A stretch of 64,000 bases of DNA from Psammoneis japonica (GCA_008632985.1 QPGO01000004.1:558001-622000), one strand, 5' to 3'; numbered from the stretch's first letter, positions 5,989 through 47,366 are shown. Translations and numbers: made by a program. Notes: generated by a model from the letters alone, not told the origin.

Positions 5989-6639
5989 TTAAGGCCCAGC
6001 GTGAATTAAGGCCCTTGTGCTGTCAGGCTCAAATCATGGATTCGAGGTGCGAGCTCCACAAAAACATCACGAGAACAGTGCTCGACGAATGGTCAGCGGC
6101 CGTTTCCACCTGCAGTGCAGCTGCAAAAAAATGACCATGCCACCACAAATGGAGGTCCAAATGAACAATGCTACACCAATCCTCACCACATTGATGCACA
6201 AATGGATCCTGAGCAGCTTCGTCGCTGCAGTCAATGGATCCATTGACTTGCTCCTCATGGCTCTCCTCTGTTTCTCTGGTGCCTCTCATTGAACTCTTCT
6301 TGCTTTTGAAAATTACAACTAGTTTCTCCTTGTTGTACTGACCTTCACAAAGAAAGATGACACAGTCAACAAACATGATGGAGCACATTCTTCCGTCTTC
6401 GGAGGCTTCTTCGGCGGCGCCATGGTGCATCGTTTATGTCGCATCGATGCGATGTGGGATCCTACGTAGGACGTAGTACTAATTCTACGTATGTGACGTG
6501 GAGGGCCTTAAATCACGACCATCCTATCATCCTCGCTCTTCGGACATTTTGGTTCGCGCGACAAAACTCATCAACTATACGGATTTGAGAAAGTGGAATA
6601 ATTTTTTTTCTGACAAGTTCAACGAGATCTTTCATATAA

Positions 6640-7140: not shown

Positions 7141-7177
<37 letters not shown>
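7141..7177. repeat. (TTG)n microsatellite
   Basis: About 12 TTG units; absent from the duplicate copy near 20430. Confidence 0.95.
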
Positions 7178-7179
<2 letters not shown>

Positions 7180-7626
7180 TGGTCGCCAAATGAAACGATA
7201 CATTTTTAAGTCGGACGCTCAAGCGGAATTGCAATCTCTTCAATCTCGCATAGGAAAAGCACAATGTTCTGTTCACGTCGACAATATGGAAAGCATTCTC
7301 TCAACGCCTGCTCGTGACAACACAAAAGGATCAAGCAGAGAGATGATGCGGATAGTACAGTAACCGTTGGTTGCATACGGTAGGTAGAGAGCATTGCTTT
7401 TTGAATTGCATGCCGGGCGAAATTATTCATTGGCGGCGTCTCCGCTGATCAAGGTGAAAGATCTTTTGCGTACGAAAGTCTGAGCGTCTCGGGTTGCTCT
7501 CTGCTGTCTAACTGACGTTGTGGTTGTTTTTCTTCTCACTTGAAATAGACACGATCTATTTTGATTTGCTTCAGGTACCATTACCAACTACGTCAGAAAG
7601 AACTGTCTACAATATTCTTAATACTT

Positions 7627-9456: not shown

Positions 9457-10610
9457 GTTTGGCGTTTCGTGTTTTCTCCAAGGACTTCGCTGATCGAAAG
9501 GCACCGATCTCTATTTTGTGAGAGTTGTAACATCACATTTCTTGTGCTCGACGCATTTCAAAATCCCGAACAATTGCTGAGTCACCATCCGAGATAGTGA
9601 CTTCCGCATTTTTTACTTATTGGGTTAGTAATGTCGGGAATGGCAGTGTAATATCAGCGGGACAGCGCACGGGATCACGCTTTTGTCCTTCCCTTATGTA
9701 ACACACGGTACTAGATCAAACTTTTGTTTCCCGCGAGTCTTTTCTTGTAACCCCGAAGGTTCTGGCTGAGCTGTTCAGCAGCACCTGCAAAATGTATTGG
9801 GCTTCCGTCAGCTAAAAAGTGAGCTCTGACGCAGCATCATGACTCAGCGACAAGCGGGGAAAACAACACACCTGATCCAACTTGCCAAATACCTTAGGTT
9901 GATATTATCATCATTCAGACCCTTTGGATTTCGAATATGAAGGTCATTCAAGGTTGTCCTGGCATTCTTCATACTTGAATTTGTGTCCGTCATCACATCT
10001 TACTGTACTTTTTACTTCGTATCTGAGAAAAACCCATGCGTACATACAGTACGTACCATACGACTGTGTAGTTAGCTTTACAGTACGATCGATATTGTAC
10101 GATAGTATGTGACATTTTCCACAAGGTCATTAGATTATTCTGTCCTACTTCTATTCTAGCTACTGTACGAACGACGGATACGACGTAATGTGATGTGCAC
10201 GATGAGCATAAGCTGTAACCGACCAAGCCTCAAACATCCCGATCGCCATGACGGTGACAGCTTGATCTTGCTTCTCTTGGAGCGCTGTGAGTGGTTGGAG
10301 TGGAGCGCTGTGAAAATCATAAAAACCTCATGTACAAAGCACTCCATGCCAAGCATCATGCACTGGCACTTGACATTCAAAAAGAATGTGAGCCCAAACT
10401 GTGGCACATGTGCCAGCACCGATGCACCCCGCAGCTTGGCTCTGCTGGTGGTTTCAACCTGAGCTCACCTTTGGACACCACTTGCAACCCAAGGACAGCA
10501 GGGAACTTGTCAAAATCATGCTCTCTTTGCTCTTCCAGCAGAGATGAGGTGGAGCAAGGTGGCGCCAACGACCTTCCTTGTCAGTTTCGCGAAAAATGCA
10601 AAAAAAGCTG

Positions 10611-11160
10611 TGAGAGGCAAAAGCAGAAAGAAGTCATGACAAGGCCCAAAACAAGGAGTGGAGGGCATTTTTGTGCCACTCTTGTGCAAGGCCAAGTTTG
10701 ATCTCTGCCAACTGTGTGGACTTGTGCAAGTCTGTGGCGTGCATCAGCCAAGTCTCACAGCAAGAGGTTGCCAGCCAAGGCAGAGACAATTTGAAAACAC
10801 AGCATCTCTTGTGCTTTGATGGTGGTCTGAGATAAAAAAATCTTTGTGAGGGGCTCTGGCAATCAGCCAAACAGCAAAAAGAACAAGCCACATGAGAGCA
10901 AAAGCAGAAAGGAGCTGTGACAAGGCCCAAAACAAAAAGTGGAGGGCTTTTTCCATGCTCTTGTCCAAGGCCAACAAGATCAATCTCTGACAACTGCGTG
11001 AACTTGTGCAAGTCTGTGGCGTGTGCCAGCAGCCAAGTCTTGCAGCAGCAAGACAAAGAACATGCCAGCCAAAATGGAGACAATCTGAGAACACAACATC
11101 TCTTGTGCTCTGATGGTTTTCTGTGATGAAAAATTCTTTGTGTGAGGAGCTCTGGCAGTG
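10611..11160. repeat. Diverged tandem duplication, ~282-bp period
   Basis: TGAGAG(G)CAAAAGCAGAAAG..TGACAAGGCCCAAAACAA..CTTGTGCAAGTCTGTGGCGTG..CATCTCTTGTGCT at ~10611-10862 and ~10893-11160. Confidence 0.85.
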
Positions 11161-13570
11161 GCCACAAAAACAGATGCACGAATGACATTTTTTTGCATCT
11201 TGCTTGCACTCATGGCCCAACAACCTGCCTGACAAGCTGCACGTTGAGCACCAATGGCTCCACAAATGTCAATGGCAGAAGCAGTGGCAAAGGCAACAGC
11301 CACAACATGCAAAATGCAAACCCCCGCAAGCTGGCCAGCCAGCATGGCATTGATGGCTTGAGTGTGATGCTTTTGTCAACCTGCACAGAGCACAGAGTCT
11401 GCCACAAGCTTGTCAAGCTTGCGCTTGCTTGGCAAACATGGAATGGCTTCTTGAAGTGTGGCCCTCCTGTGAGCACCCAGGTTTGATTTGTGCAGTGGCA
11501 GGCAATCATGATGTGCAGCACAAGAAAAGGAAAAAATGCACTGATCAAGACAGTGCAGTTGTTGTTGCAAGCAATCAAAAAAAGAGCAGGTGAGGAGGTG
11601 CCATGATTTTGCCAAAATCAAGGCATCCTTTTCAGCAAATTGCGGCAGAACAAGAGTGCCAAGTGCTGTTTTGGCTGAAAAATCCACAAATGAGAAAAAG
11701 CAGAAGCCAGTTGAGAACAAGCAGGCTTCTGCCTCCCAAAATGATGACCAGCTTGACTTTGTTTTCAAAGATTGTCAACATCAGCCAATCAGAAACCAAG
11801 ACAACATGTCACAGTCTCAAGTTGTTCATGTGTCACTGTCAGCTCAAGCACCTTTTGAGTTTTGAGCTCCAAATGGCTTCTACAACAAAATTTGTGTTGT
11901 TGAAAACATGCGCTTGCCATCTCAAATCATCTTTGAGAGACATTTGCTCTTGTGACTGTGCATCCTCAACAAAGCGCCACATTTTTTGGCACTTTTTCTG
12001 CAGAAAATGCTGCAACAACCATGGCACCACACCTCCAGCATTGCCTGCCAACTCTGTGGGTTTGCAAAGACAAGAGATGAATGTTTGGCAAGTGCTGGCT
12101 GTTGCTGGAGATGACACATAATTTGTCCAGTGCTTTTGCAGCAGAAGAAAAGCTGAGAATTTCATTGAGTTTGGGCAGAAAAGTGAACAAGGCTGCAGTC
12201 ACTTTTTCTGCTCAAAGGAGAAGCCAGCCAGCGGCACCCAGCCTGTTCATGCAGCCACAGCACTGAAAGTTGTGCCGCAGTGGGATGTTTGAAAATGTGC
12301 AGATGGAGGGCACAGCAGTGGCTTGTCCATGAAAGATGACAAACAAGAGCTGCCAGTGCAAAGCAAAGCAGAGCCAGTTTTCATCATCCCCTGGAAGCAC
12401 ACAAAAGGAGAGTTTGCAGCACACCTTTGCAAGCAACAACCAACAAGAAAGACAATGTTGTGACCAACAATGTTTTGCAAATCAGCTCAGTTGGCAAGCA
12501 ACGATGCTCCAAGTCACAATTTTGTCTGCTGCAATGCAGCAAACAATGGACCCATTGGACCCAGCAAAGCCATTCTGATCACAGGTGTCTCTTTGCCAAG
12601 AACATCCTCACAACTGTTTGTGCTCTGCAGACAGCTGCTTTGAGAACCTTTGGGTCCATTGCTGGCTCTGCTGCCAGCTCCCTGAGTCACATGGCAAGCC
12701 AGAGACTGGAGAACAGAAAAGCTGTGGAACTGATGTGCTTTTGCAATGGCCGCAATGGAGGCAGCAGTGATGACAACAAAAGTGCTGGCTGCAGTGGCAG
12801 TGGCAAAACCATCTCAGACAACAAAGCAGTGATTTCTCTACATCCATTTAGAAGGAAGAAATTTGTGAGAAAAAAGAGGAGGTGTTTGTCCTCAATGATG
12901 AATGACCTTCCAGTCAAAACAAGCTGCACAACACAGGCTGCACACCCACATGTTGCCAGAAAACTCAGAACTCCCCAAACGTCATGGCGCACTTGACCAA
13001 AGCACAAGCACATTGCAAGACCACCCTTTGAGTCAAATGATGGTTGCTTTGACAACTTTGTCAAGCCAAGCCATGACCAAACAGCCTTTGTGGCACTCAC
13101 AAAGTGGTCATCTGCTGAATGAATGCATGCATGTCTCCAGTGGATGCCATGATGACAGTGGCACCTGTTTTGTGGTGGAAAAGAGATGTTGTTGGAGCTG
13201 CTGGCACTGCAAGTGATGAGAGAGAGAGAAAGGTGTGCACCCAGCTCTCAAGGCTTCATTTCCAAGCACGTGATGCTGCATTGACTCTCTCAAGCAGGTT
13301 CACGGTGCACGTCATTGCTCCTGAGATAAAAGCAGTGCCCACAGGAACCAACAAATGTTGTCAATCAACTTTGATGCTCTCTGGGTCAAGTGTGTGCTGC
13401 CTTCTTGCAAGCATTTGTTTCTGGGCAGCACTTGACTTTTTGCAAAGGTGGCATCAGCTGTTGCTCAAGGTTCTGTCCCTCCAACAATGCAACAAAGACA
13501 AGCCCAACAAGCACCAATTGGATTTCACTGCACCTGCATTGGCAGATGCAAATCACAACAACTTTGTCTT

Positions 13571-13612
13571 TGTGTGTGTTTGTGTGTGTGTGTGTGTGGG
13601 GGGGGGGGGGGC
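13571..13612. repeat. (TG)n microsatellite followed by poly-G
   Basis: Directly visible. Confidence 0.9.
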
Positions 13613-13619
13613 TTCATGA

Positions 13620-15250
13620 GTTTTGAGCAGATTTGCAGGCTGGGATTTTGTCTTGTGAGAAGATTCCAGGGGAGGCAAGGTTGCAACAATGGCAGGGGTT
13701 TCTTGTGTGGATGGTGCAGAACTTTCTTGAGGGTCAAAGTCTGCCTGCAGCAGGCCAGTGCATTGAACACCAAATTGCAGCAAAGCATTGGCACAGTCAA
13801 AAACCAGAGCAGGGACAACAGCACCACGGTGGTGGAACAAGAGCACAAGCTGGCACCTGTTGTGCCTTCAGCTCAGTGAAAGTGCTCTGTTTTCAAGTTG
13901 GAAATGAAGGCAAGTGAGACACTGGCCTTGTTGGATTGAAAAGGTTGGCAGTTGTTTTGCAAGCATTGAGGTGCAGTTGCTCACAACTTGACCCCAGTTG
14001 ATCACCAACAATTGCACACAAATGGCCAGAATTTGAAGGCACAAGATGCCTTGAAACCCATCACTTGAAGAAGGCCAAAGAAATCTGGAGCTTGAGGAGT
14101 GACAAGATGAGTGGGAAGCACAAGTCATTGCACTGCAAAGTGAAGTCCAGGCACCCCATTGTGTGTTGCCCCAAAGAGTGCACACAGCAACAACACAAGG
14201 CACAGTTTGATGCGGCACAAGAGAGCAATTTGTGAGGTTGACACTGGCAGCAACAGCAAAAGCCATGGCTTGCTTTTGAAAACTTTCAAATTGCTGTTGG
14301 CAACAACTGCTGCACAGGCCATCACATGTGGCTGCAATGTTTTCTTGATGCTTCTGAGATTGGTGCTGTGACAAAAAATTGTCAGACTTGAAGAACAGGT
14401 CATGTCAGCAATTTCTGAAAAAGAGTGCACATGAAGGTGAGCACAACTTTTGCAGGTTGCATGGTCAAAACTGCACTGTTGCACCCACTGGAGCTGGAGT
14501 GCACTTGGCAGCCAACTCGCTGCAAAGAGAAAGCTGTTGTCCCAATGTTGTTGTGCAGTGGAAAAGCAGAGAGGCAGCTGACAAGAGCATCATTTTCAGC
14601 TTTGCCACCCTGGAGAGACAACAAAATCAAGCCCCCTCCTGTTGCCCACCAGTGCCTCTGCTGGCATTGCATAAGAGCTGCAGTGCACACTGCTTGCTTT
14701 TCAGCAAGAAGTGCAGTGGGCAGTGTCAGAAAACAAAGAAAAGGCAAAATCTCAGGTGTGGAAAGCCACCACAGAAAAGGTGGCAGAAACAGTCCCATGG
14801 GAGGGAAAACTCAAGACAGGAGATTGCACCACACTTGCAGTCAGACATGATGACTGACCCAGCTGCCAGGTGGTTTGAAATGGGCAAAGTGTCAGCCACA
14901 AAGAGCAGTGCCATGCATCACATCTGGGGGTGCCACTCAGCAAACCTGGCCATGCAGATGTCTGTGGCCAAGGAAGGTCATTTTCAAGAAGAGAAGAGCC
15001 AAATTTATGGCTGAACTTGTCAGAGTGGTGCAGAGTCACTGTGGTCTTCAAAAAAGGCCAACAGGAAATGCACTCTAAAGGCAAGCTCTGCACAGCTGAG
15101 TGGATGCACCAGACAACCAGAAATGTGGTGTGGTCACTTTCAGCACAGGAAACTGGACAAAGACAACCCATGGAGCAGGGAGCACAAAAAACAAAGGTGC
15201 ACACTCTGATTGAGCAAGCCCAGCACAGCATCTGGTGTTCAGCAGAGACA
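13620..15250 (+). pseudogene. Ty3/Gypsy LTR-retrotransposon pol relic (RNase H-integrase; RT very degraded)
   Basis: Frameshifted motifs: LLKTFKLLL (LKEFRNILLG), HEGEHN (YIKGEHN), CQKTKKRQNLRCGKPPQK|VAETVPW, MTDPAARWFEM (MIDPATGWFEI), KFMAEL..SHCGLQKRPT (EFMAEF..DYGLKKRP), EWMHQTTRNVV (ERIHQTIGNM). Confidence 0.75.
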
Positions 15251-18200
15251 CCACATTGAGTGCACCAAGGCACCGGCTGGGGGAGCTCACAGGACAAAAA
15301 GCAGAAGCTTGCCTGGACAAATGACAAGCAAAAGAAATCCAAGTGCTGAGAGTGCTGACACACTGAAGCACTTGGTGCTCATGAAACAAGAGCATGGGTG
15401 GGACTGAGTGCAGGGCTGTCCACTGTTGTGCAGGTCCCGCCACAGAGTTGCCTGTGCAAGCAACAACAAGATGCACTGATGTGTGCTCAATCTGTGGCAA
15501 ACAGTGCCCTGTTGTCAGTTCTCAGCAAGGCACATGGTGATCTGTGGCCTCATCATGGGGGAGCATCATGCAGCATGCATTGTGCTGACAGCTGGCAGGT
15601 GCCGGTGTGCATCCTGTGGCGCTGCCCTTCTGGAGGCAAGGGCACAGATGAGCATGCTGAATGAGCCTGTGTGCCTTGCCATTGTTCTGCCAAGCAGAGG
15701 CACTGGTGTGTTTGTGCACCAGCCAGTTGCATGTGAGCTTCCACTGCAATGTTTGTGGCTGCACTGCAGGATGCCTTTCTGTGGCTGGCACATGATGCAG
15801 CCACTCACTTTGGACAGCTGTTTGATGGCTGTCATTAGAGGAGAAGCAAGAAATTTTGAGAAATGCCCAGGAAAGCTGGGGTGTGCACAAAAAGGGCATC
15901 AGGTCTGTTCAGCACTCACCAAATCTGGCTAAAAACCACAAATGCACTGGTTGGCAGACTCTTTCAGTGCAAATTCAGCACAAAATGTTTTGGCCAGCAG
16001 ATGGCTGGATGCCCCCCCAAGCCTTGGCCCCCTTTTCTGGGATGATGCATTTGTGGGCTCACAACACCTCACTGTTTGAGCACCATTTTTGGGATGGGCA
16101 AACCACAAAGTCTGAACAAGCATGCCCTGTTGGTCTTCTTGTTTGAGCTCTTCTTCTTTCCAAGCTGGGTGGTCACATTTGTTGATCCACTCTTTGGCCA
16201 GCCACATGGCAAAGATCATCTGTTGGACCAGTGGGACAACTTCTGCTCTGCCTGCAGCAGGGTTGGCACCTTCTCTCTCAAAGTTGTGTGGAGCACACCA
16301 ACAGACAGCTGGAGTCACAGCCCAAGCTTGTGGTGTCCCAACTTGTCCTTTTCTTCTTTGACCATCCTGCACAGTTTTTTCAAGGCCAACCTTGCGCCTT
16401 CTTTCCCCCCTCCCTCATTTTCTTTTCATGGCTTGCTCCCTTCTTGCGTCCACCGAGTCATTGGAAAGCTTGAGTGCTGAGCCTGGGCTGCACTGTGGGT
16501 CTGAGGTTGCTGCAAGTGTGTGCCACTTTGCATGTGCTGCCAGTTGCTGATGTCCTTTCTTTGTGACATTCTTCTTGGTGATGTTGGCTTGCTGTGGCCT
16601 CTTTCTTCATGCCTGGTCCTCTGGTGCCCTTGACCATGTGCTGCTCTCATCCTCCATCCAATCTTTCTTGCAGCTTGGGCTGGCTCTGCCTCATCTGTGC
16701 CCCACACAGGAGCATTTTTCATCTTGCTGTGTGTGCCCTTGGTTGGAGCATTTTGGAGCAGCTTTGGCCAGCTTTTCCTCCTTCTGACTTCCTTCATTTC
16801 CAAGAGCAGCTTTGAAATGGCCAGTTGTCAAGAAGCCTCAGTTTGGGAGTTTCCTTGCTCAGGTTTTTAGGCTGTGCTTGTCAGGGACCCCCCTTTTGGT
16901 TGTTGGCAGAGTGTCTCTTGCACACTTGGGCAGCCATGGTCAGCACAAAGTTTCTCCCACCCTTGGCTGGGGTCAGTCCTGTGCATCCAGTGGCACTGCT
17001 TCTAAGAGTTGGCTTGTGGTTGCTGCAAACTTTCCAAGACAGAGTCCTCCTGCACATGACAAGCAATCCTGTGGTGTGCTTTTGTGCAAACTCCACCAGG
17101 CACCAACATCTCAGATCACAGAAAAGCAGGGTCTGGGTTTTGGATCCTGAGTCATCTTGGAAGACATGTGGGTTTGCTCTGCATGTTGGTCACCAGTGCC
17201 TGGGCTGTGTGCTAATTTGTGAAATTGCAGCACCAGGCTCAGAACCTGCCAGAACTTCAAAAACAGAAGTGGCACAAAATTGAGCAAGGTCTTGTCTTTC
17301 TTTGGCATCAAGACTGACTTTGCAGCTTGGCATGTTTGGTTTGTGGCACAGGGGCACTTGGCTGGAGCTTCTTTGCCAGGTTTTGCACAGAGCAAGATCT
17401 TGCTCCTTGAAGTTGGGCAAACTTGGCAGCCCTTCTCTGTGTTTTTTTTTCAGCCAATGACCCACCATGACACTTCTTGACTCAAAAGAAAGGCATGTCT
17501 CTGTCAAAACCAGTCACATCAATGCTTTGATTGCACTTGTTCAAAGCTCTGGTTCTTTCTGGACCCATTCACACTTTTGCCATGGCCATCTTGTTGAGGC
17601 AGCATGGCTTTTCTTGTGAAAGCAAGAGCCCACGCTCAACTCTGGCAGTCACCAACTAATCAAGTGGCACCTGCCTTGGGCACCAAGGGTGTCTCTCTTG
17701 ATGTTTTGCACTTCATGCTGGGGTGTCTCTTTTTCCATTCATGGGGAGGGGTTGTTGGTGTCTTGGCAGCAATTGAGATGAGCTCCATTTCTGCCTCTGT
17801 GGCTCAAGTGTGCATTGCAGGGCACCACTGAACTTGCCTCCACAGCAGTGCTGCAGAAGATCTGATTGTTTTAGAAGACATTCCTGTCCACCTTGACCCA
17901 GCAGGAAACTTTGATGCTCTTTGGCATCCTTGTCATGCTGAGAAGTGTTGCTTTCTTCTTCTGGCAGCTGCTCACAGCCTTGTTCTTGATGCGCCCTCAG
18001 CATCCCCCCCCTGAGTTGCTCTGCTTCTGTTTTTTCTTCTGGAGCTGGAGCAACTCCATGGCATCTGCTGGCAGCACCTCACTTCCTTTTCTCAGCTGCA
18101 CCATCATCTTTTGACTCTTTCTAAGATTCCTTTGCACAGCTCTTTTCAAACCCCTTTTCCCACTTCATGGGGCACATTCAAGATGTCAATGAGCGCTCAC

Positions 18201-18399
18201 ATGCAGAGATCTCTTCTCTCCAGCATCTTGTTGACAAGACTCATGGTGGCACAAAACAAAAACACAAAATTTGCAATTTGGTGTTGCCACCCTGCCAGCA
18301 CTTCCACCCAGCAACTCCAGCAACAAGCTGACCCACATGCACAGCACACTTGCAGCATGGCAGGAGCACACAAATTGTGAAAATGTCTTGCCAAAAACA

Positions 18400-19900
18400 G
18401 CTGGCAATGGCTTGAGTGCCTGTGACAGCAAACTGCCAAGCCTTCCAAATGCTTGGCTTGAGTGCTGGTTTTGCAACAGCCTGCCAGCTTCTCAACCTGT
18501 GTGCCAGGCAAAAGAGGTGCTTTTTGCCTGAGTCAAAAAGATGTGCTTTGTCCTTTGCCAAGCAGCCATCTGCCCAACATTGTCCTTGCTTCCTCTCAAT
18601 GCACCAACTTCCTGGTTTCCATGCCATGTGTCCATGAGTGCCATCATTGTGCGCACCCCACAGATCCCACAGCCCAACCACCCAAGTGCCAAGCATTTTC
18701 AAGCCTTTGCTCCAGGAAGAGGACAACGTGATGCACAGCAGACAAGGCTGCTGAGCCTCATTTTGCAGCACAAAGAAGTGGTTGGTGAAGATGTGCTGCT
18801 GGCCAGCAATGCTGTCCCAAGAGGAGGCTGATGCAACAGGCAGCGCATCTCTTCTGGACATGGACCCGTGGTGGTGGGGCAGCATGGGATGGAGGGAACA
18901 AGAGCTTGCTGCAGACCAGCCATTGTCAACAGCTGCCTTTGAGCTGGTGCCTTTGAAGTGAGCATTGCTCTGATGCTCTTTGCTTTTCAGCTCCAGCAGT
19001 CAGCATCCTGCGCAACAGATTGGGTCATGTGCAAAGCTTGTCCAAAGACCCAGCCAAATTTGAGTGTCAGCTGGCTTGCCAATGTCTCTGACTCAAAGAG
19101 TTGCTGCTGCTTCTGCTCAGATGGGTGCTGAGAGCATTTGTGCCTTTTGCTTCACTGCTGCTTGGAGAGAGTTTGTGGCACTGTGTGCAACAACCACAAT
19201 GCTCTCTTGCAGTTTTTCATGCCTTTGTTGCTGCTCACAAGGGCTGTTGCCAAGCTCAACTTCCTAAAAAGAAATGCAGCAGGGAAAATGGCACACTTTG
19301 GCTCGTGCTGCATTTGACAACAAATGGGTGGCCAACACATGCAGACATTGAGGAATGTGCACAATGGCCCCATTGTCAGTTGTCTTGACAGCAAAAACCA
19401 CTCTGTGACAGCAGCGTTGTCTTTTTGTTGAGCCTGACTCACTGCTCTGAACACTGCCAGCAAGTCGAAGAGCTCCAATGCCACACAACAGCTCCTCAGC
19501 ACGTTTTCTCAGCTCTCCTTGTCACACCTGCACATGCACTTGTCAAACATGCTCCTGTTGTTGTTGAGAGTTTTTTGTCATTTTGTTCAATCTTTGCACT
19601 CAACCTTTTGCATGTTTCTTTTGCTGCAAAAACTCAAAACAGTGAGGCAATGGATCTCTGACCAGAAACAGCTCTAAAACTCCAGGCATTTGTGGGGATC
19701 AGCAGTGGGCACTGGGCTGCTGTGGGTGGGGGCATGTGGAGCAGAGCCAGACAATTGTGTGTGGACAGCAGCAGCCCACAGCAACTCTGTCTTCCAAGTG
19801 CAGTTTTGACAAACAAAAACAACCCCACCCACAGTGCCAATTGACAGAGGCTGCTTCAACGCAAGCTCTGCACACACAAGATTTTTTAGACAGCTGCTGC
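18400..19900 (-). pseudogene. Non-LTR retrotransposon (LINE) ORF2 C-terminal relic
   Basis: RNase H-like ALELFDLLAVFR..KDNAAV, Cys-knuckle-like DPICCAGC, and WSKGLKMLGTWVVGLWDLWGAHNDG..HLF..RLRSWQ resembling the W..RN..H tail of LINE ORF2. Confidence 0.5.
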
Positions 19901-20381
19901 AGTCCAGAGAACCCCTCAAAATCAAAATCCAGCGCTGTCCACATCAAGCCAATCCAGTCTGGAACAAGATGTCAGTGCAATGGCTCATGTTCTTGGGAAC
20001 TGCACATTTGAAAAATCACAGATCTCCCCGCCCTGATGTCTTTGAGTGCCCTGGCTGGCAACATTGTGCTGGGGCCAACACCCTCTTTGGAGCAAACCAA
20101 CTCTATTTGCTCTTCTGCTTCTCTCACTGATCTTGTTCTTTTGCCCAATGTCCAGAACATCCATGCTGTTTCCGTTCTCCTTCTTGTTCCTGATTCTCAC
20201 TCCAATGTTGACCTCATCTTCAGAGCCGTTTCCTTTTGGATCTGTCGTGTCAGTGTCTTGTTCTCAGATCCCTTGCTGCCGTCCCACCAGTCGTTTCCAT
20301 TGTCAAAGCAGGTCTGCTGCAGCTAGAGGCGCTTGTGTTCCTCGTCCTTCAACTCACCAAAATAATAAAAAATTGTTTTGC

Positions 20382-23300
20382 AGACAAGGTCTGCACTCGA
20401 AAAGCACTGTACGCAACCAGCTCGAAATTTGGGTTGGTCTTTTTTTTTTGTCGCCAAACGAACAAACAATGCATCTAAGTCGGATGCTCCTTCAGAGTTT
20501 CAATCTTGCGGAGAAAAATCACGAACGATGTTCTGTTCACGTCGTCAATGTGGAATACATTCTCTCAACGCCTGCTTGTGACAACACGAGAGGATCAAGC
20601 AGAGAGATGATGCGGACAATACAGTGCCCGTTGGTTGCGGAGGTCGAGATCAGCGTTTTGGATTGCATACCGGGCGTAATTTTGTGTTGGCGTCGTCTCT
20701 GCTGATCGAGGTGAGAAGTCTTTTCGATTGCATCCGAGCGTCTCGGGGCGCTCTCTGCTGTCTTGGGTTGTTTTTCTTCTCACTTGAAATAGGCACGAGC
20801 TACATTTTGCTTCAGATGTCATAACCAACTTCGCTTGAACAAACTGATCTACAACACTTTTAAAATATTTCTAGAGATTTGACGGCAGAAGAACATCGTC
20901 GATGACATGCACAATACCGTTGCTTGCTTCAATGTCGGTATCAACAACTTTAATGCCATTGATAGTTGCACCGACCCGCCTGTACCACCTCTTGTACTGG
21001 ATATCAACGTGAAGGGCTTCACCCATAAGAGCCGTATCAACCGAACCTTCCGTCAAATCGCGAAACCTGACCTTGCCAGGGATGACATGATAAAGAAGAA
21101 TCTTTTTAAGGGTTTCGGTGTCGGCAACGACAGCATCGAGGGTAGTGTCAAGCTTCTTCAAAAGTCTGTCAAAACTTGCATTAGTTGGGGCAAATACGGT
21201 AAAGGGTCCTTCCGATTGGAGTGTTTCAACCAAACCTGCCGCCTTCACCGCTGCAACAAGAGTGGAGAAGTCTTTGTTCGAGCTGGCTACTTCGACAATG
21301 TCTGGAAGGGGTTCTGGAGGAATTAGAACCTTGTCAATGACATGAATAATACCATTCGAAGCTTTCGTATCAAAGCTGGTAATTTTCGTGTCACCGTTGA
21401 GTTTGGCATACCTGAAATGCCCGAAGAAGTACTTGACGTCGACCTCAATGCTACTTTTTTTCAGCGCTGTAGCTACCGAGCCATCTCGAAGGTCGTCACG
21501 AGTGACTACTCCAGGAACGACATGGTAGAGGAGTATGTTCGTGAGGGTTTCTCTGTTCGCTTCCTTGAGCAGGGCATCCAAGGTGAGGCCGAGCTGCTTC
21601 AGGGTCCGTGTGAAAGCTTCGTTTGTGGGCGCAAATACGGTGAAGGGGCCACCACGAAGAGTATCAACCAAGCCAGCCGTCGACACAGCCTTTACAAGAA
21701 TGGAAAAGTCGTCGATGGAACTGGCAACATCAACAATGTCTGGCTTCTTGTCGGTCTTGGGTTCTGGAGGAATGAGGACGGTGTCGATCACGTGAATGAT
21801 TCCATTGTTTGCCAAAATATTGACGTCAGTGATTTTGACCTTGTCGTTAAGAACAACCTTGTCGCTCTGCACGTCCACATCGATCTCTTTTCCAAGCAAC
21901 GTCTTGATGGGTCCGTCCTTAAGTTCTTTGTCCACAACAATGCCAGGCAGCACGTGATACTTCAGAATGTCTGCAAGTGTAGCTTGATTTTCGGGTTTGA
22001 GAAGATCGGAAAGGGTCATACCAAGCTTGGAAAATGCTTCGTTGGTCGGAGCGAGCACGGTCAATGGCCCGCCTTTCAGCGCATCCACCAAACCGGCTGC
22101 TTGAGCAGCTTTAACAAGCGTGGAGAACATAGACGGGTTGGCAATGGCTACATCCACAACATCGTTCGTTAGGAACGGGGGTACCAACACGGAATCCACC
22201 ACTTGCACAAGCCCATTGCTAGCTTGTACGTTGCGTTTCAAGACGTTGGCGTTGTTGATCTTGATGTTCCCCCGCATTCTGGTTGCAACGACGCTATCAC
22301 CTAGAAGCGTCTTGATGCGGGCATTGTTTTCGATAGCTTTGCGGTTGGCCTTGACTCTGCCTGGGACAACATGATACTTGAGTAAACCACGTAGATGCTC
22401 AATGTATGAGTTGTCGGTCGTCAACTTTTTCACCAACTCCTTATCCAACGCGGAGAATGCTTCATCCGTTGGAGCGAAGACGGTGTAGAGAGGACATCTG
22501 GCTCTGTTTCTCCTCCATGTGCAGCCAAACTCCGAGTCAAGGCCAGCGATACCAAGGGCGGTAACGAGCGTTTTGAACCCGGCGGACTTTGCAATATCCA
22601 GAATCGGGACTCGCTTTCTTCGTAGCTGTCGTTCTTCATCTGTGACTTCACCAACAGTCGAGGCGGTTGAAAAAGAGAGACACAACGCGCCCAACAAAAA
22701 GTAGGGAAGCTTCATGTTTGGCAATCGTGTTTTCTCCAAGGACTTCACTTATCGTAAAGCACGTTATTTTGTGAGAGTTGTCACATCACATTCTGGGGTG
22801 CTCGACACATTTCAAAATCCCGAACATTTCCTGAGTCACCACCCGAACTGGTCACTTCCGCATTTTTTACTTATTGAGTTACGGGTCGGTAATGGCATTG
22901 TACCATCGGCGGGACAGTGCACGGGATCACGCTTTTGTCCTTCCCTTATGTACCTCACGGTACTAGATCAAACTTTTGTTTCCCGCGAGTCTTTTCCTGC
23001 AACCCCGAAGCTTCTGGCTGAGCTGGTAGCAGCTCCGCAAAATGTTGCGCTTCCGTCAGCGAAAAAGTGAGCACTGACGTGTGCGACATGCGGGCAAAAC
23101 AACGCACTTATTGAATATTTGACAAAAACCTAATATTACTTATGTACGAAGGTCATTCAGGAATGTCCTACGACTAGAGTCATGACATTCTTCAAGAACC
23201 CATAACCCAAGCATCAACAAACCGACGCGGTTCGTTCCCGCCCGACCGCCATGATCGATGACGGATGACGGTGACCGGCTCGATCTTGCTTCTCTTGGAG
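20382..23300. repeat. Segmental duplication copy B; direct repeat of 7059-10283
   Basis: See copy A. Confidence 0.9.
20871..22715 (-). CDS. Secreted fasciclin protein with four FAS1 domains (paralogue 2)
   Basis: MKLPYFLLGALCLSFSTA.., nearly identical to 7627-9456, intact ORF. Confidence 0.92.
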   Translation of the reverse strand: MKLPYFLLGALCLSFSTASTVGEVTDEERQLRRKRVPILDIAKSAGFKTLVTALGIAGLDSEFGCTWRRNRARCPLYTVFAPTDEAFSALDKELVKKLTTDNSYIEHLRGLLKYHVVPGRVKANRKAIENNARIKTLLGDSVVATRMRGNIKINNANVLKRNVQASNGLVQVVDSVLVPPFLTNDVVDVAIANPSMFSTLVKAAQAAGLVDALKGGPLTVLAPTNEAFSKLGMTLSDLLKPENQATLADILKYHVLPGIVVDKELKDGPIKTLLGKEIDVDVQSDKVVLNDKVKITDVNILANNGIIHVIDTVLIPPEPKTDKKPDIVDVASSIDDFSILVKAVSTAGLVDTLRGGPFTVFAPTNEAFTRTLKQLGLTLDALLKEANRETLTNILLYHVVPGVVTRDDLRDGSVATALKKSSIEVDVKYFFGHFRYAKLNGDTKITSFDTKASNGIIHVIDKVLIPPEPLPDIVEVASSNKDFSTLVAAVKAAGLVETLQSEGPFTVFAPTNASFDRLLKKLDTTLDAVVADTETLKKILLYHVIPGKVRFRDLTEGSVDTALMGEALHVDIQYKRWYRRVGATINGIKVVDTDIEASNGIVHVIDDVLLPSNL

Positions 23301-23396
23301 AGCAGTCAAAGGTCAGAATAGAGCGCCGTCTTGTCTTCACTGAAGTCGTCGTCTCGTCCTTGGAAAGAGACCACACGCATAAAATCCTTTGCAATC

Positions 23397-40375: not shown

Positions 40376-41688
40376 CTACCTTTTCATTAGTTCAAACGCC
40401 AACAAAGCCGTGACTGCAGCGGCAGTGTACCATTGAAGGATGGCGCCATACTTTGGTGGCTTTTCCTTCTTGTCTTCCAACGCCTTGAGAGGATTGTGAA
40501 AGTTTTCAAAGAGACGAACAAGGTTCCTCTCCAACATGGCCACGGTTACTTTTCCAACCATGGGAACATAGACGACACCCGGAATCTTGAGCAAGCTTTC
40601 CTCGTCAACATTCTTGAAGGATGCCACGTTGACGACTGTCGTGTTGGGCTGAATCCATTCAGACGGAAGACGATAAGCCTTGGTCGGCACACCCGTCACC
40701 ACAACCGACGACTGTAAACGGCACAGAAAGTGAGAAAGACGAGATCACAACAACAAGAGAATCAGCAGAAGAATGGTTTCGACGAATTCAAGCCAAGATT
40801 GCAAGAGCAATATGCAATTTATAGCTTCGTACCTTGCGAACACAGCTTTCCGGTGTTTCATCCGGGCATTTCTGAAGGCGCCCTCCACGAAACAGATAAA
40901 TCGAATTAATGTCAACCGAGTACACATCGGCTCCGTCATTGTGCAGCATAGCCGCCAGCGGTCTTCCCACAACCTCGCTGCGATTAATCACAGTGACGGT
41001 TCGTCCCTCCATTTGCCTTCTCAGCGGTTTTGACTTGTCGTAACAACCAGGACACTGTTCCAGAATCTTCACCACTGACAAGGCTGTACAAGGCAAGACA
41101 CATTTTTGCGTATTGGCTGGATAATCCAGAAACCGAACATTACGATACAGATTGGTTCGGTAGGTATGACAAAGTCCCTCGACGTCGCACTTGTACGAGA
41201 TCGTGTCGCGCAAGTAATCATCCTGACTAGCTCCAGAAAAGCTTTCTTCCTGACCAAAAATAGGGTAGTATACAATAATACCATGGACACGAGGATCATC
41301 ATTTGCATCATTGAGTGCTCGTTCCACATCAATCGGGTCGTCTATCGTGCGAAGCTCGTACCGTAATCCATCGGCTCTGCACGCCTTTCCGGTCCACTCT
41401 GCATATTTCTTGGCTGCGGGATCATTGTTGGCCAAAAGTCCCACCAACAAGGGCGCATCTATCATAATGGAGAATCGCAAAAGCAAGGAAAAAGAGGAAT
41501 TATTAGACAGTCTTTGCGTAAGAACGAAATCACAATGGGTCGAAATTCTTACCGATGCCCATCTTTTTCAGCTCTTGGACCTTGGTCTTGATCTCATCAC
41601 GAAACGGCTTGGAAACAACTCCTGCATCCACTTTCACTCCCACCGTTTTGGAAGCTACAATGAGTGGTGTATCTTTGGTGTCCGTCAT
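40376..41688 (-). CDS. MTD1: Methylenetetrahydrofolate dehydrogenase, MTD1-like FolD family; two introns
   Basis: PLLVGLLANNDPAAKKYAEWT, HGIIVYYP, DDYLRD..CDVEGL, LPCT, VINRSEVVGRPLAAML.NDGA.VYSVD, VPMVGKVTVAMLERN. Confidence 0.9.
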
Positions 41689-42062
41689 GATGCTTGTAGG
41701 CAATGTTGTAAGTACCGTAACAGCAATGGAGTTCTGGTTTTTTGATGGATTTTTTGTGTTTAGCAGGATGGATCTTTTTTCCCGCTTTTTGGATGGATAT
41801 TGGATATCCGTCATTCTTGCTGATTAGATTCCACATTCCTTTCAAAGCATGACGTAAAAGTGATGCCATTATGACGTACAGTAGACAATTGTTTTTCGAA
41901 ATCGCCGACATCATACATGCCATGCGACACACGAAGCACAATGCCAAAACAGCCGTCAGTCTCGGCATCGCACCCTGTGGCATTATCCTCACCAAGACTG
42001 TTCATGCAAGGTACAAGCACCTTGTCACTCATCACCATTTCAACTCTGTGGATCTCCGTTGC
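41619..42062. repeat. ~0.45-kb duplication copy A (MTD1 5' end, divergent promoter, 5' end of dehydrogenase); direct repeat of 45455-45932
   Basis: CTCCTGCATCCACTTTCACTC ... CAACTCTGTGGATCTCCGTT shared between the two copies. Confidence 0.92.
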
Positions 42063-42390
42063 CCGCGCATCCAGCCGTTTTGATCAGCGATTGTCTTTTG
42101 ATCAGCGATTGTCTGCTTGTCGCAGCAGATTCAAGGCACGCGACAACACAAGGCAGTTGATTTCAAACACAGGATCTTTTCTTCTCTCGACTTCAAATGC
42201 AGGATCTTTCTTCTTCTCTTTCTTGCTGTCGCTCTGGCTCTTGCTCTTGATCTCGTCATCGCTTTCCTCATCACATTTTGATGTGTTGGAAGAAATGGAA
42301 CAATCATCATCATCATCATCGCTGACATCACACACCATTGCTTCATTCATGGTGGCAGCTTTGGCAGTTGTTGTGGGGGTGACAGTGGTG

Positions 42391-42690
42391 GCAGCACCTG
42401 ACTTGGTCTCAGGAGCAGCACCCGACTTGGTCTTGAGGGTGGCACCCAACTTGGTCTCGAGAGTGGCGCCCAACTTGGTCTCAAGAGCAGCACCCAACTT
42501 GGTCTTGAGAGCAGCACCTGACTCAGTCTTGAGAGCATTGTCCAACTTGGTCTTGAGAGTGGCACCTGACTTGGTCTTGAGAGCAGCACCCGACTCAGTC
42601 TCGAGAGCAGCACCCGGCTCGGTCTTGAGAGTGGCACCCGACTTGGTCTTGAGAGCAGCACCCGACTCCGTCTCGAGAGTGGCATCTGAC
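42391..42690. repeat. 24-bp tandem repeat (~12 units) encoding (K/E)T(K/E)SGA(A/T)L on the minus strand
   Basis: Units like GCACCCGACTTGGTCTTGAGAGCA; ORF 42102-42791; looser copies continue to ~42950. Confidence 0.9.
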
Positions 42691-44558
42691 ATGTCAGTCT
42701 TGGTGGCAATGGCTGCAGCCATGCTTGTCTTGGTGGCAGCAGCTGCAGCCAACTTGGTCTTGAGCATGCCAGTGGCACCTCCTGACTTCACTCAGAGAGG
42801 ACCGGCGGGGCAGTCGACTTGGTCTTGAGTGCACCAGCAGGAGCCGACTTGCTCTTGAGTGCACTGGCAGCCATTGACTTGGTCCCAAGCTTGCCAGCAG
42901 CTTTCAACTTGGTCTTGAGCGCACCAGCAGTGCCCGACTTGGTCTTGAGATCAGTTGATGCAAAAAAGGTGTTGAGTGTTTTTTTTTTGTGGAAAGCAAC
43001 TCCCCTTTGGTGGGCGGGAAACCGAGGAGTGTGCATTGGTGCTTCCTGTCTTTTCAGTCTCATCCTCTGGATCCGAGACCCAATCTGTTCTTTTGCACCT
43101 GCCACTTGGTGATTTTGAAATGTCGCTTTCCAAATCCATGCTGTTGACGCTCTTGGAACTCGTGTCCTCTAGAGAAAGCTGCTTTGCAAGCTTGAGATCA
43201 CCGTGGAACCTGGCCTCAGTCTCCGCTCTGCTCCATGAGTGTGGATTGGTTGATGTGGCATTGTCCAAAACCATGCCATTGGTTGTCTTGCACTTCTTTG
43301 ATGAGACATTTGCACCAGGTGTGGTCGATGTGTTGCGTGGCAATGACTTTGTGCTCGACTGGTGAAATGACAGCAAAGACAGTGTCACGGTGGTTTAGAG
43401 AGGAAAAATGTTAAAATGGGTCTGCGATCAATTAGAAAATTGCACTTGCTTTTGTCACAATGTTTCTCTTTCAAGTCACATTCTTTGGTGTTTTCCATGG
43501 CCCATGTGAGAATGAATCATCATGACTGTTGTCGCTTGAAACTGAAACGTCACCACAATTTTGGCTGGAAAACAAATCTTCATCGCTCAACAAAGACTGG
43601 AGATGCGAAATGTTTTGACATCTGGTGGGCCGCGACAGCCTGCTTGAAACCTGGTGTGACAAAACAATGACAAAAGAGTGAGGATGGAATTGAAAAGGAT
43701 GCAAAAATTGACAAGGAGACAAGTTGACAATCTAGCGCAATTGACAACTCCACTTGCCATGATCAAAGAGAGCTTCTCTGTGGATCCACGTGCAGCAGTG
43801 GCAGGGGCTTCCACGCAGTGGTGGAACGTTTTGCAGACAATGGACTGATTCACAAAATGCTCAATGGAGACAATGATGCAAGACATGTCATGAGTCCATC
43901 ATGACAGCACAATGCAGTGCAGCGCACATGCAGTCACACTTGCAGTGTCAGCAACTGGTGCGCAGCTTGTTGCATGGGTTGATGTGTCCGTGGAATTGCG
44001 GTGCTTTGGTGAGGTGGCAACATCTCACTTGTAGAATGTGGGAAAGCAACCCAGGTCATGACGAGCCACTGCAAGGCATGAGAGTGAAACGATGACAACA
44101 CTGACATGGATGTCGAATGCCAAGATCACCTGGAGTGGTTCAAGAGGCACATTAAGAGAGATGACAGCGGCGGTGTTGTGCAGTGTGTCTTGTTGTGTTG
44201 GTCAAATGGATGCTGCAGATGATCTTGCAGAAAAATGTGCTGTGATTGGGTCCACATTGATTTGTGTGGAAACAACACAATCTTTGGCTGTGGTGGGATT
44301 TTTGAATCGTGAAGATGCGCTGACATTCATGTGTGAATGCTCTGCAAAAATCACGCGTTCCACCGTGAGATCATGATGACAGAAAGACCAGCACTGCTCA
44401 AAAATGCACCCCAAGCATGGTGCTGTTCAAGACCAAGACGAACCATGTTGGAGAGCCAGCAACAGGAGTGCTGGCAATGACAATTCTGCATGTCCATCCC
44501 ACTGCTCACCAACTGCTGCATTTGACACCAATTTCATCACACAAATCTTTGGATGCAA

Positions 44559-45450
44559 TCAAGATCTTTTTGCTCTCTTGTCATTCTTTCCACTTGATCT
44601 GTCAGCCTTGCAAGCTTCCATGTGGCGCTTGCACTTGGAGCACATCCTGTTGACCTTTGCTCCAACAGCTTCTGTGCGGCGCTTGTGCTTTGAGCCCATC
44701 CTGTCAACCTTTGCTCTGCGAGCCTTTTTCCCCATGCCAATGCAGTCTCCTTCATGGAACCGCAATGGACGACTCCCTCTTTAACTGCAAAGCCACTCAT
44801 GGTGTGGTGTTGCACATGACCAGCTGCAAATTGCATGGTCATTTGATCATTGATCCCAACAGCCTTGCCCAGTTCCAGGAGTGGAAAGTGCAGTTGCACA
44901 TGCTCAGCATTGGTCAGGACATCACCCACAAACTCATGCACGCAGGTGGTGGGGACACACAAGTTTCCAAATTTGTCCAACCACGCCAGCAGATGACTTT
45001 TCTCTTGATTGGTCAGGATGTGGTCATTGCATCTTTGACAATCATGTCTCTTGTCATTTCCTTCACACCATCAGTTGAATCATCGCTGTGAATCAAACTG
45101 CAGAAAGTGATGCCTTTAGGAGCTCCCAAGGTCAACACACCCCTGAGACAGAGTTCAGTTGTTTCTGTGCCCATGACCACAGCCAAAGCATTTGTGAAGA
45201 GTTTGTTGCATGCTGCTGCTCTGCCTGTTGCCAGATTTGTCAAATCTGCTTGGAGATCTGCCGCTGCTGGAACCAAAGCATCTTGACAATGCTTGCGACA
45301 ATGTTGGGACTTTGCCTTCTTGTCACCAGGATCAGCGAGGAGGTTGCAACTCAGCTGACAAGTGCAGCCGCCAATCTTCATTGAATGCATGCCCATCTGC
45401 CCATCAAATGTTGCAGCTCAGCAGCGCAAGGTCCCACCCAGAGCTGGAGC
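44559..45450 (-). pseudogene. Decayed TET/JBP-like 2OG-Fe(II) dioxygenase
   Basis: FCSLIHSDDSTD (HxD at 45082-45090), frameshift ~45035, LLAWLDKFGNLCVPTTCVHEF..LHFPLLELGKAV.I.D..MQFAAGHVQHHT (distal His ~44804-44809)..AWG. Motif-level recognition only. Confidence 0.45.
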
Positions 45451-45454
45451 GTGT

Positions 45455-45932
45455 CTCCTGCATCCACTTTCACTCTCTCCGTTTTGGAAGAGAGCTGCAA
45501 TGAGGAGCGGCGCATCTTTGGCGTCCGTCATGATGCTTGAACAAAGCGCAGTTCTTGGCAACAACAGCAAAATGGGAAAACAAAAACGAGAGTCTGGCGG
45601 AGAGTTCTGATTTTTTTTTTGATGGATCAGATCCAGCTCTAGCTAGAGAGCAGAGCAGGATGGATCTTTTCCCCCGCGCTTTTTGGATGGATGTCCGTCA
45701 TTCTTGTTGATCAGATTCCACATTCCTTTCAAAGCATGACGTAAAAGTGATGCCATGGTGACGCAGACAATTTTTTTTCGAAATCCGACATCATGCCATG
45801 CGACGCACTTGAGCACAATGACAAGACAGCCGTCAGTCTCGGCATCGCACCCTCTTGTCCCCATCAAGACTGTTCATGCAAGGTTTCAGTACCTTGTTAC
45901 TCATCACCATTTCAACTCTGTGGATCTCCGTT
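45455..45932. repeat. ~0.48-kb duplication copy B; direct repeat of 41619-42062
   Basis: See copy A. Confidence 0.92.
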
Positions 45933-47366
45933 TGCCGTGCGTTTGTTCCGAGGAGACTGTCAACTTCAACTCGTTTCCTTCGATCAACGCCAACCCCGCT
46001 GCTTCTGGGTAAGAGGAGTTTGACAATGCTTGGAGAAACTTCACCTCCCAAATATTGGAATCGCGAAACATCGTCTCCAAAAGAATTCGATGATTCTTCG
46101 CCTATTGTCAAGGAGGCGAAAATTCTGAGTCTGAGCGACCCGCTTGACGATGCCTGTTCACCGCTTCATACGGGAAAACTACCCGAGGGTGCAAAACTTC
46201 TTTCGATTGGATGCACGTTGGAAGACTTTGATGTTGAAGCTCTCAAAAAGGAGGAACCAAACGTCCTTTTCGTTTGTCATCCCAAGGTATGTTAGCAATG
46301 TTGTGTGGGTATTGTGTATTCTCTTCTCACCTCGACGGTTTGGTTTCACGTTTTCATACATAGGCAAAAGAACCGCTTGTGCAGATCCTAGAAGCCTTGC
46401 CCAGCATTGAATGGGTTCATTCACGTGCCGCTGGGATTGATTTTATTGCTTCTGAAGGCCTAGCCAAGAGTAGTGTACTACTTACAAATGCAAAGGGGAT
46501 GTTTTCGAGTACCCTGGCAGAGTACACAATGATGGCTTGTTCGTTTTTTGCAAAGGTAAAAAAGTTCTGCGCGCGCACTGTACATTCGTGGTAAGGATTG
46601 CAAGGATCGGACTAAATCATCTGTTTCGCCGATCTCGATCTTTTGCAGGATTTACCTCGACTCATGCGACAAAAGAAGGACAAGAACTGGGAAAAGTACA
46701 GTGTCTGGAACTGAGAGGTGCAACTTTAGGTATCATTGGGTATGGCGATATTGGGAGGGCGTGTGCCAAACTGGCAAAAGCTTACGGGATGAATGTAATT
46801 GCCTTGCGTCGAAATCCTGAGCTGAGCAAGGATGATCCTTTTTGTGATGTAGCCTATGGCAATGACTCATTACACCGTCTCATGGGCGAGAGTGATTACG
46901 TTTTGGTAGCTGCACCGCTCACGAATGACACGCTAAATCTGGTGGACAAGGAAGCGTTCTCACACGCCAAGCCGGACTCGGTGCTCATCAACTTGGGTCG
47001 CGGTCCCATTGTGAATGAAGAGGCACTCATTGATAGCTTGAAAAACGGGAAAATAAAGGGGGCGGCGCTTGATGTGTTCACAGAGGAACCGCTTCCGACC
47101 AACAATGAGCTTTGGGCGCTCGACAATGTCCTTTTATCGCCGTGAGTAGAATGATTCGTTGCGTAACATCGCCTCCAGACAGATTTTTCCTTATTTTTTT
47201 CTCTTTCATTATCGCTCTCTTTTTGTTTTGCTGTTGCAGACACAACATGGACATGACTGCTACGTTTATGCACGAGTCCACTGAATTCTTTGTAAATGAA
47301 AATCTACCTCGATACCTTCGCGGAGCAGAGCTATTGAATCCTGTAGACAAGGCCGCAGGCTACTAA
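45876..47366 (+). CDS. D-isomer-specific 2-hydroxyacid dehydrogenase, probably plastid-targeted; three introns, apparent frameshift ~46703
   Basis: WVHSRAAGID, LTNAKG.FS..LAEY, TLGIIGYGDIG, INLGRG, GAALDVF..EPLP, LLSP|HN. Signal peptide followed by CRAF. Confidence 0.88.

Follow-up and report, generated by a model that had tools for sequence, protein, structure and literature searches.

We analysed a 64-kb stretch of the genome of the diatom Psammoneis japonica (QPGO01000004.1:558001-622000, assembly GCA_008632985.1), referred to throughout as the window and used for all numbering, which contains three islands of DNA depleted in the dinucleotide TpA (TA) and a host promoter duplicated either side of one of them. 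Dinucleotides were counted per kilobase across the window and expressed as observed/expected ratios (o/e). Background DNA has a TA o/e of 0.53-0.55 and a CG o/e of about 1.0. One-kilobase windows with a TA o/e of 0.09 or less form two runs, nine consecutive (11001-20000) and four consecutive (42001-46000), in which TG or CA mostly reaches 1.5-2.1. These runs mark a large island of 10 kb and a small island of 3.4 kb; a third island is partly mutated (Table 1). Island GC content stays near 48% because the loss of CG and the loss of TA cancel.

The small island lies between an NAD-dependent methylenetetrahydrofolate dehydrogenase gene (MTD1-like) and a 2-hydroxyacid dehydrogenase gene. The window is eukaryotic; GT..AG introns of both flanking genes are spliced out in the X2 contigs. 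All sequencing contigs compared here come from three runs of one sample, none recorded as RNA, and the sample is possibly the assembly's own source. In the MTD1-like gene, exon 2 is 40833-41458 and the coding part of exon 1 is 41553-41688 with its ATG at 41688, whilst an mRNA-like contig extends to 41744. The exon is 81-91% identical to homologues labelled Bacillariaceae, Cylindrotheca or Mayamaea, on which basis the sequence was assigned to a raphid pennate diatom. On the other side, an mRNA-like contig of the 2-hydroxyacid dehydrogenase gene begins at 45829, and TA is retained there at 45890 and 45898. The two genes are arranged head to head, unlike those on a metagenomic diatom contig (L002:582-2930), where MTD1 is immediately preceded, in tandem orientation, by a 2-hydroxyacid dehydrogenase gene (53-62% identical).

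Table 1. Features of the window, with dinucleotide values as observed/expected ratios.
Feature	Position	Strand	Remarks
Third island, partly mutated	4830..6310		TA 0.17, CG 0.60, TG 1.76, CA 1.45
Copy L, host duplication beside large island	7164..10311		Four-fasciclin-domain gene 7630-9510 (-), intact
Large island, 10 kb	10334..20324		Core TA 0.03, CG 0.08, TG 1.85, CA 1.86
Copy R, host duplication beside large island	20433..23329		Fasciclin gene 20874-22748 (-), intact
MTD1-like gene, 5' part	40833..41688	-	Pfam THF_DHG_CYH, E 3e-13
Copy A, duplicated host two-way promoter	41619..42069		True MTD1 start, 17 TA
Small island	42070..45454		TA 0.04 (9 TA against 216 expected), CG 0.39, TG 1.71, CA 1.80
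24-nt tandem array	42353..42950		Units differ chiefly at CG/TG/CA steps
Decayed gene, protein family known from environmental assemblies	44540..45417	-	Full-library phmmer, tblastn
37-nt motif, right end of small island, just upstream of pseudogene	45414..45450	+	High-copy in genome
Copy B, proximal part, host-derived, dead copy of MTD1 start	45455..45862		TA-stripped
Copy B, distal part, working start of 2-hydroxyacid dehydrogenase gene	45863..45941	+	First AUG 45876, enzyme frame

An earlier note on this DNA had described a piece of host DNA present on both sides of the small island. Alignment confirmed it as a direct duplication, copy A (41619-42069) and copy B (45455-45941), with homology overrunning the ends given in that note by a few bases. 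The alignment comprises 423 columns at 88.7% identity, rising to 95.0% in a purine/pyrimidine code, in which identity is scored on purine versus pyrimidine only and transitions are masked; the mismatches are therefore mostly transitions. All seven substitutions listed in the note were found again. Copy A differs from copy B by A/G at 41657 (GCTACAA versus GCTGCAA) and 41806 (GGATATCC versus GGATGTCC), and by T/C at 41668 and 41670 (GTGTATC versus GCGCATC), 41825 (GATTAGA versus GATCAGA) and 41882 (GTAGACA versus GCAGACA). At 42018 and 42026 it is copy A that has C and copy B that has T (AGCACC versus AGTACC, GTCACTC versus GTTACTC).

The 17 TA of copy A read in copy B as TA once, TG three times, CA four times, GG once and other dinucleotides four times, with a further four falling in indels. 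Copy B has five TA in total, namely the one common with A, two in an insertion found in B only and two at its far end. TA o/e is 0.56 in distal A (to 41990), the last ~78 bp of this copy (41991-42069) being island-proximal, and 0.11 in proximal B (3 TA against 27 expected). CpG, by the account of the earlier note, had largely been retained in the copies, and indeed CpG persists in B at 13 of the 14 aligned CpG sites of copy A; the CG o/e of proximal B is 0.84. Proximal B also holds many indels and 5 transversions. The sole TA common to both copies sits in TGACGTAA (41853-41860 and 45740-45747), and may be protected by function, since TGACGTAA is located in the best-conserved block of the promoter. 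We take TGACGTAA to resemble a cAMP-response-element-type site.

Transitions between the copies run strongly in one direction. Direction tallies omit 16 of the 48 A/B mismatches, which fall where indels are frequent and the alignment is poor (41697-41761). In the well-aligned sequence left of A-coordinate 41990, 15 transitions are to G/C in B and 2 are opposite (binomial p = 0.002). Right of 41990 the direction reverses, with C in A at 5 sites against 1 opposite (Fisher p = 0.003 for the switch). Within proximal B, TA changed at 7 of 8 sites, compared with about 8 of ~160 other A/T sites (a denominator estimated by hand; Fisher p = 7e-8). The MTD1 reading frame offers a further indication of polarity. 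Thr and Val are retained in protein outgroups at the positions encoded by ACC, ACA and GTA in A, and by GCC, GCG and GCA in B; the N-terminal Thr-Pro-Leu-Ile-Val is kept in the relatives P0024, P0021, P0093 and P0080, and MTDT in L025. At these three codons the outgroup N-termini, which are moderately conserved, would place the ancestral state in A, and they are supportive rather than decisive.

The small island itself contains a decayed gene. A full-library phmmer search with the minus-strand open reading frame (ORF) 44540-45070 returned 13 matches (best E 4.2e-10), and tblastn of family members onto the window was also run. Two island ORFs are collinear with the same protein family, the N-terminal half at 45417-45016 and the C-terminal half at 45070-44540, with one frameshift between them and no Tyr codon in either. 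Five columns of the family are strictly conserved as Tyr, and in the island these read CAT four times and TGC once, each one transition from TAT or TAC. A sixth column, Tyr in 7 of 11 sequences, is Ala in the island, the same as in its two closest relatives. Moreover, CAG stands at a conserved Arg position and TTG at a conserved Ser position, which are marks of CpG decay. The loss of TA has destroyed a once-coding gene in the small island.

TA loss is therefore a derived change of TA to TG/CA, because copy A works with background TA, the outgroups match A and the island pseudogene lost its Tyr codons. This is the direction that the earlier note had proposed, and the 15 versus 2 transitions, the protein outgroups and the Tyr columns agree with it. 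Its view that ordinary host DNA was struck also stands, in that the copy belonging to the working gene has normal TA and proximal B has lost it; the duplication thereby shows both the direction of change and that host-derived DNA was affected. The same is true of its view that the element did not bring its TA-poverty with it. As all five strictly conserved Tyr of the pseudogene are replaced, TA-poverty was not imported as a working property.

A second host duplication in the same window, as diverged as A/B, served as the baseline of ordinary divergence. Copies L (7164-9871 plus 10248-10311) and R (20433-23107 plus 23265-23329), either side of the large island, share 88.7% identity across 2734 nt. 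Aligned TA was kept at 59 of 89 sites (66%) between L and R, in contrast to 1 of 13 from A to B (Fisher p = 7e-5). L/R transitions showed no bias, with 55 in one direction and 66 in the other, which differs from the 15 versus 2 of A/B (Fisher p = 0.001). Both of the larger islands sit exactly between direct host duplications, of 0.45 kb and about 3 kb respectively, and this position between duplicated host segments suggests that integration followed a route in which long stretches of the target are duplicated.

The TA that survive in the islands are not a random sample. Among those of the two larger islands (n = 30), 21 are YTAR and none are RTAY (R, purine; Y, pyrimidine), whilst background TA (n = 1793) include 322 YTAR and 521 RTAY (p = 6e-10 for the YTAR excess). 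In the partly mutated island YTAR makes up 9 of 17 surviving TA (p = 0.001). Had TA arisen de novo from CA or TG, the expected share of YTAR would be about 24%. RCA and TGY are the most enriched products, at 1.6-1.95 times background density, versus 1.2-1.4 for the others. The simplest reading of these contexts is that the target is the A in 5'-T-A-pyrimidine (5'-TAY), in which case only sites with TAR on both strands would escape.

A deficit of CpG, paired with the excess of TG/CA, is also found in the islands (CG o/e 0.08 for the core of the large island, 0.39 for the small one), and the CpG poverty of island cores tracks their apparent age. TA loss and CpG decay are separable, because proximal B and the large-island shoulders have lost TA yet keep CpG; the shoulders (10334-10600 and 20105-20323) contain zero TA at a CG o/e of 0.34-0.43. 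Units of the 24-nt array alternate CG, TG and CA, and their identity increases from 72-83% to 95-97% in purine/pyrimidine code. A 270-nt repeat of the large island likewise goes from 78.5% to 89.7%, with 4 CA-against-TG double differences. As the island repeats differ mostly by transitions (72-79% identity, against 90-97% in purine/pyrimidine code), mutation acted in place, after the internal repeats arose. Searched in purine/pyrimidine code, the islands had no long homology with host DNA of the window, so they do not represent mutated versions of the sequence beside them.

Comparison with same-sample X1 contigs gives some idea of timing. Assembly and contig differ at 4 of 3395 island positions, 3 of them CpG/CpA alternations and 1 a transversion; flank contigs show 0 differences but for one single-base insertion at 46704. 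Since 3 of the 4 within-sample differences are CpG/CpA, CpG decay looks recent. The differences lend no support to the earlier note's description of TA loss as ongoing, as no TA polymorphism was seen among them.

Spread outward from the island, with an effect that falls off with distance, had also been proposed. A reach of about 400 bp into B was found, but it takes the form of a step rather than a gradient, and extends at most 58 bp into A. Changes in B are even over 45497-45861 and then stop, so that the derived changes end 14 bp before the dehydrogenase AUG and no dependence on distance is seen. TA of the most sensitive class, RTAY, is kept in A at 42012, 58 bp from the small island, and at the borders of the large island at 10333 (1 base from the TA-free tract) and 20410 (86 bp away). 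Three of the four borders are thus sharp, and the long reach is confined to B. The border in B would fit any of three readings: a delimited tract combined with selection, a single integration event that also struck the newly made copy, or uneven leakage.

These features were compared with known systems in which particular tracts of a genome are mutated. Repeat-induced point mutation (RIP) of ascomycetes is a defence that inactivates inserted or repeated DNA through dense transitions in a dinucleotide context, and is tied to the sexual cycle. RIP changes C to T at CpA, creating TpA, and can leak into adjacent single-copy genes. The diatom locus is similar in having compositionally aberrant islands with damage to neighbouring host sequence. 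However, its tracts lose TpA and gain CpA/TpG, the mirror image of RIP. Moreover, RIP targets duplicates, whereas the 2.7-kb L/R duplicate keeps 59 of 89 TA and has no direction bias; targeting of duplicates is disfavoured because this pair is unmutated. CpG decay of methylated transposons arises by deamination of 5-methylcytosine, and the islands resemble it in their CG o/e of 0.08-0.39 and TG/CA excess. That process cannot remove TA, and the CpG footprint is narrower and slower, proximal B having kept its CpG. The natural tRNA substrate context of the TadA/ADAT2-ADAT3 deaminases is U-A-C in the anticodon loop, which the proposed target 5'-T-A-pyrimidine resembles, an analogy of sequence context only. 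A DNA-editing relative of the tRNA adenosine deaminases, ADAT2, has been described in amphioxus (PMC10354150).

The closest precedent is the chlorarachniophyte Bigelowiella natans. In mutation-accumulation lines of this alga, 231 of 302 nuclear mutations fell in integrated giant-virus and virophage regions; nearly all mutations in the inserts were A-to-G or T-to-C, those all on TpA, and they build up over generations in long-integrated DNA (bioRxiv 10.64898/2026.01.13.699255). Mettrop et al. propose an ADAT2/TadA-like adenine deaminase as the agent (bioRxiv 10.64898/2026.01.13.699255). None of the words CpG, flank, context, trinucleotide and diatom appears in the main text of the preprint (bioRxiv 10.64898/2026.01.13.699255). 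Full-text literature searches for TpA hypermutation in diatoms found no report, leaving this preprint as the one close precedent. As described there, the B. natans pattern is shared by the diatom locus in several respects: TpA becomes TpG or CpA on either strand, leaving tracts poor in TpA and rich in CpA and TpG, and the changes are confined to certain inserted or unannotated regions and run GC-ward, against the usual AT-ward bias. The type of mutation is also as in B. natans, with 15 of 17 transitions in proximal B toward G/C alongside its 5 transversions. There are differences too. The host here is a diatom, a stramenopile; its islands are near saturation, with a TA o/e of 0.03-0.04 versus 0.45 in the giant-virus region of B. 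natans; and the diatom locus also loses CpG, has a visible 3'-pyrimidine preference and includes duplicated host DNA among what was struck.

Taken together, we think it probable that a targeted TA-to-TG/CA process struck a silenced insert and the adjoining non-coding part of copy B, largely sparing copy A. TA loss is derived, falls in a definite context and is located in the islands and in B. In all three islands TA would have been converted to TG/CA by A:T-to-G:C transitions with a preference for 5'-TAY, and a slower decay of CpG to TG/CA, probably by deamination of methylated cytosine, would run on top of it; together the two would push all pyrimidine-purine steps to TG/CA. The delimited tract would consist of the insert plus the non-coding part of B up to the dehydrogenase start codon, with A scarcely affected. 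By analogy with the proposal for B. natans, the chemistry would most likely be enzymatic adenine deamination in DNA, aimed at the silenced insert. Both the enzyme and the choice of tract are what we infer from the pattern. We regard the insert as a probable mobile or foreign element.

Several observations weigh against this interpretation. Strict specificity for TA is not supported, as more than half of the derived transitions in B (8/15) lie outside TA, whilst B. natans is described as mutating TpA only. Four of these non-TA changes make CpG from TG/CA near the border (45508, 45511, 45522, 45805); for one CpG-creating change, Thr ACC to Ala GCC, the protein outgroups give the direction. Selection on coding sequence is presumed to have set the border in B, and polarity at the island-proximal end of A is likewise presumed. 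There the bases at 42018 and 42026 are as the earlier note listed them, whereas its polarity for them depends solely on B being the coding copy (the dehydrogenase presequence has Leu TTA in B versus Ser TCA in A). The second duplicate provides a weak echo only: in the first 467 bp of R, TA was lost six times in R versus once in L (p = 0.125), and other L/R segments lean either way. No named member of the decayed-gene family was found among the assembly matches, viral contigs gave no match to that family or to the 37-nt motif, and the curated Pfam cut-off was not reached by any of the 8 small-island and 91 large-island ORFs. Furthermore, a search for a DNA outgroup yielded 39 metagenome loci carrying MTD1 orthologues, all of which align in coding sequence only and not in intergenic DNA, and in the three runs no contig connected the two flanks across the island, so that no empty-site allele was seen. 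Of the metagenome MTD1 loci, the 17 that are at least 3 kb long contain no TA-poor tract.

It is possible, though we consider it rather unlikely, that a continuing process seeps outward on both sides of the island and weakens with distance, in the way RIP reaches neighbouring single-copy DNA in fungi. In agreement with this, the G/C state is found at both island-proximal ends, over 45497-45861 in B and at 41992, 42014, 42018, 42026 and 42066 in A. The large-island shoulders are TA-free yet keep some CpG, the proximal 467 bp of R have the 6 versus 1 losses of TA noted above, and L has a cluster of A-to-G changes (10290-10305) adjoining the edge of the large island. On the other hand, leakage would not predict the absence of a gradient in B, nor a reach as uneven as about 400 bp versus at most 58 bp. 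RTAY survive at 42012, 10333 and 20410, 1-86 bp from TA-free tracts, and no TA polymorphism was seen.

A single burst at integration, in which the insert and the new copy of the promoter were deaminated through a single-stranded or break-induced-replication intermediate, is improbable. It would account for the sharp borders and for damage to one copy only, and the location of both larger islands exactly between long direct host duplications suggests that duplication and insertion were one event. Moreover, the mutated tract (about 41991-45862) has the length of one repeat period, and a same-strand cluster of T-to-C changes (45508-45522), non-TA and CpG-creating, adjoins the border of the small island. 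However, the L/R copies are not TA-stripped and the sensitive TA at 42012 is inside the tract that a burst would have affected. B. natans mutations, by the account in the preprint, accumulate over generations, and the island repeats diverged by transitions after amplification.

We regard it as very unlikely that no special process operated, with B changing by drift or GC-biased gene conversion and the island arriving TA-poor from its donor. The many indels and the transversions of B are as this would predict, and TA-to-TG/CA changes do occur far from islands, making up 24 of 224 L/R mismatches. Yet the concentration of change in B on TA (7/8 versus about 8/~160) and the 66% of TA kept between L and R both speak against it; the change of conserved Tyr to His or Cys together with a frameshift reflects decay of a once-coding gene, and the bias in the context of surviving TA would go unaccounted for.

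Artefact is less likely still. Modified bases in silenced DNA could have been misread as TG/CA during sequencing or assembly, and as the contigs may derive from the assembly's own source sample, they are not an independent check. Nonetheless, the X1 contigs (word depth about 60-70) differ from the assembly at 0 flank positions and 4 of 3395 in the island, the pseudogene has a frameshift, and the island repeats differ mutually, unlike the product of fixed-motif misreading. Equally remote is ADAR-like editing of double-stranded RNA of the element followed by reverse transcription into the genome: A-to-G changes with a 5' T preference do resemble the ADAR neighbour preference quoted in the B. natans preprint (bioRxiv 10.64898/2026.01.13.699255), but no reverse transcriptase, integrase or long terminal repeat was found by Pfam among the 8 and 91 island ORFs, the flanking repeats are host promoter DNA, host-derived B was mutated too, both strands were struck and the repeats diverged in place.

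Further observations concern the contents of the islands. Members of the decayed-gene family come only from metagenome and run assemblies, where they are labelled 'hypothetical protein', and the conserved motifs of the family (P0122-P0168) are NSxHxD, LSVPTTCxYEF, LQFYA..HxTS and AWG. A 2-oxoglutarate dioxygenase-like HxD...H motif is conjectured in it. The family has no Pfam match, a search of its profile against PDB sequences gave nothing under E 0.07, and a structure model of the family was too poor for a fold search (mean pLDDT 46.7). A word-indexed protein search with a 177-aa ORF gave no match, the family being found in the later full-library search, and a protein atlas search with a 134-aa island ORF gave no usable match. 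X2 contigs do not cover the small island and are uninformative on its expression.

The 37-nt motif at the right end of the small island has one copy in the window and a summed contig depth of 6766, versus about 60 (same-sample contigs). Sequence past 45450-45455 is unrelated between copies. The motif folds no better than shuffles, and also occurs in one RNA-like contig with 3 mismatches.

The large island has little three-base periodicity. Owing to the absence of TA, which deletes two of the three stop codons and leaves TGA as the sole stop, the islands hold non-gene ORFs of up to 317 aa, 41875-42828 (+) among them. About 15 kb of the 64-kb window is TA-stripped DNA of this kind, an annotation trap that misleads gene callers.

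A perfect 21-nt inverted repeat (4638-4658 and 7000-7020) encloses the 2.4-kb segment in which the third island lies, and may mark the ends of a DNA transposon; none of the 14 ORFs of this island reached the curated Pfam cut-off. Elsewhere in the window, the minus-strand ORF 2740-3918 contains a Tle1-like phospholipase catalytic domain (Pfam, E 5e-32). Rfam gave 0 matches in the window, and a single tRNA call was rejected as probably spurious, since it sits within a Cys-tRNA synthetase coding sequence.

TpA-only hypermutation of inserts was described in 2026, in one chlorarachniophyte (bioRxiv 10.64898/2026.01.13.699255). The locus reported here is a new and saturated instance of this kind of hypermutation in a diatom, adding detail on sequence context, on partnership with CpG decay and on damage to a promoter. 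The direction of change can be read from the locus itself, which acts as its own control with no second genome needed, and the 3' pyrimidine context narrows the search for the enzyme. Tentatively, diatoms may possess an adenine-deaminase defence that recognises 5'-TAY, marks inserts, joins with methylation-driven decay and rewrites adjacent promoters, the host duplications being the scar of integration. With this TpA signature also present in a rhizarian alga, such a system, if real, would have an ancient origin and a broad distribution in the SAR supergroup. The same footprint in a diatom would mean that the process is not limited to one lineage, and the genetic tools available in model diatoms would open its mechanism to experiment. 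Lastly, the locus is evidence that a host promoter in use can be altered incidentally by the process.

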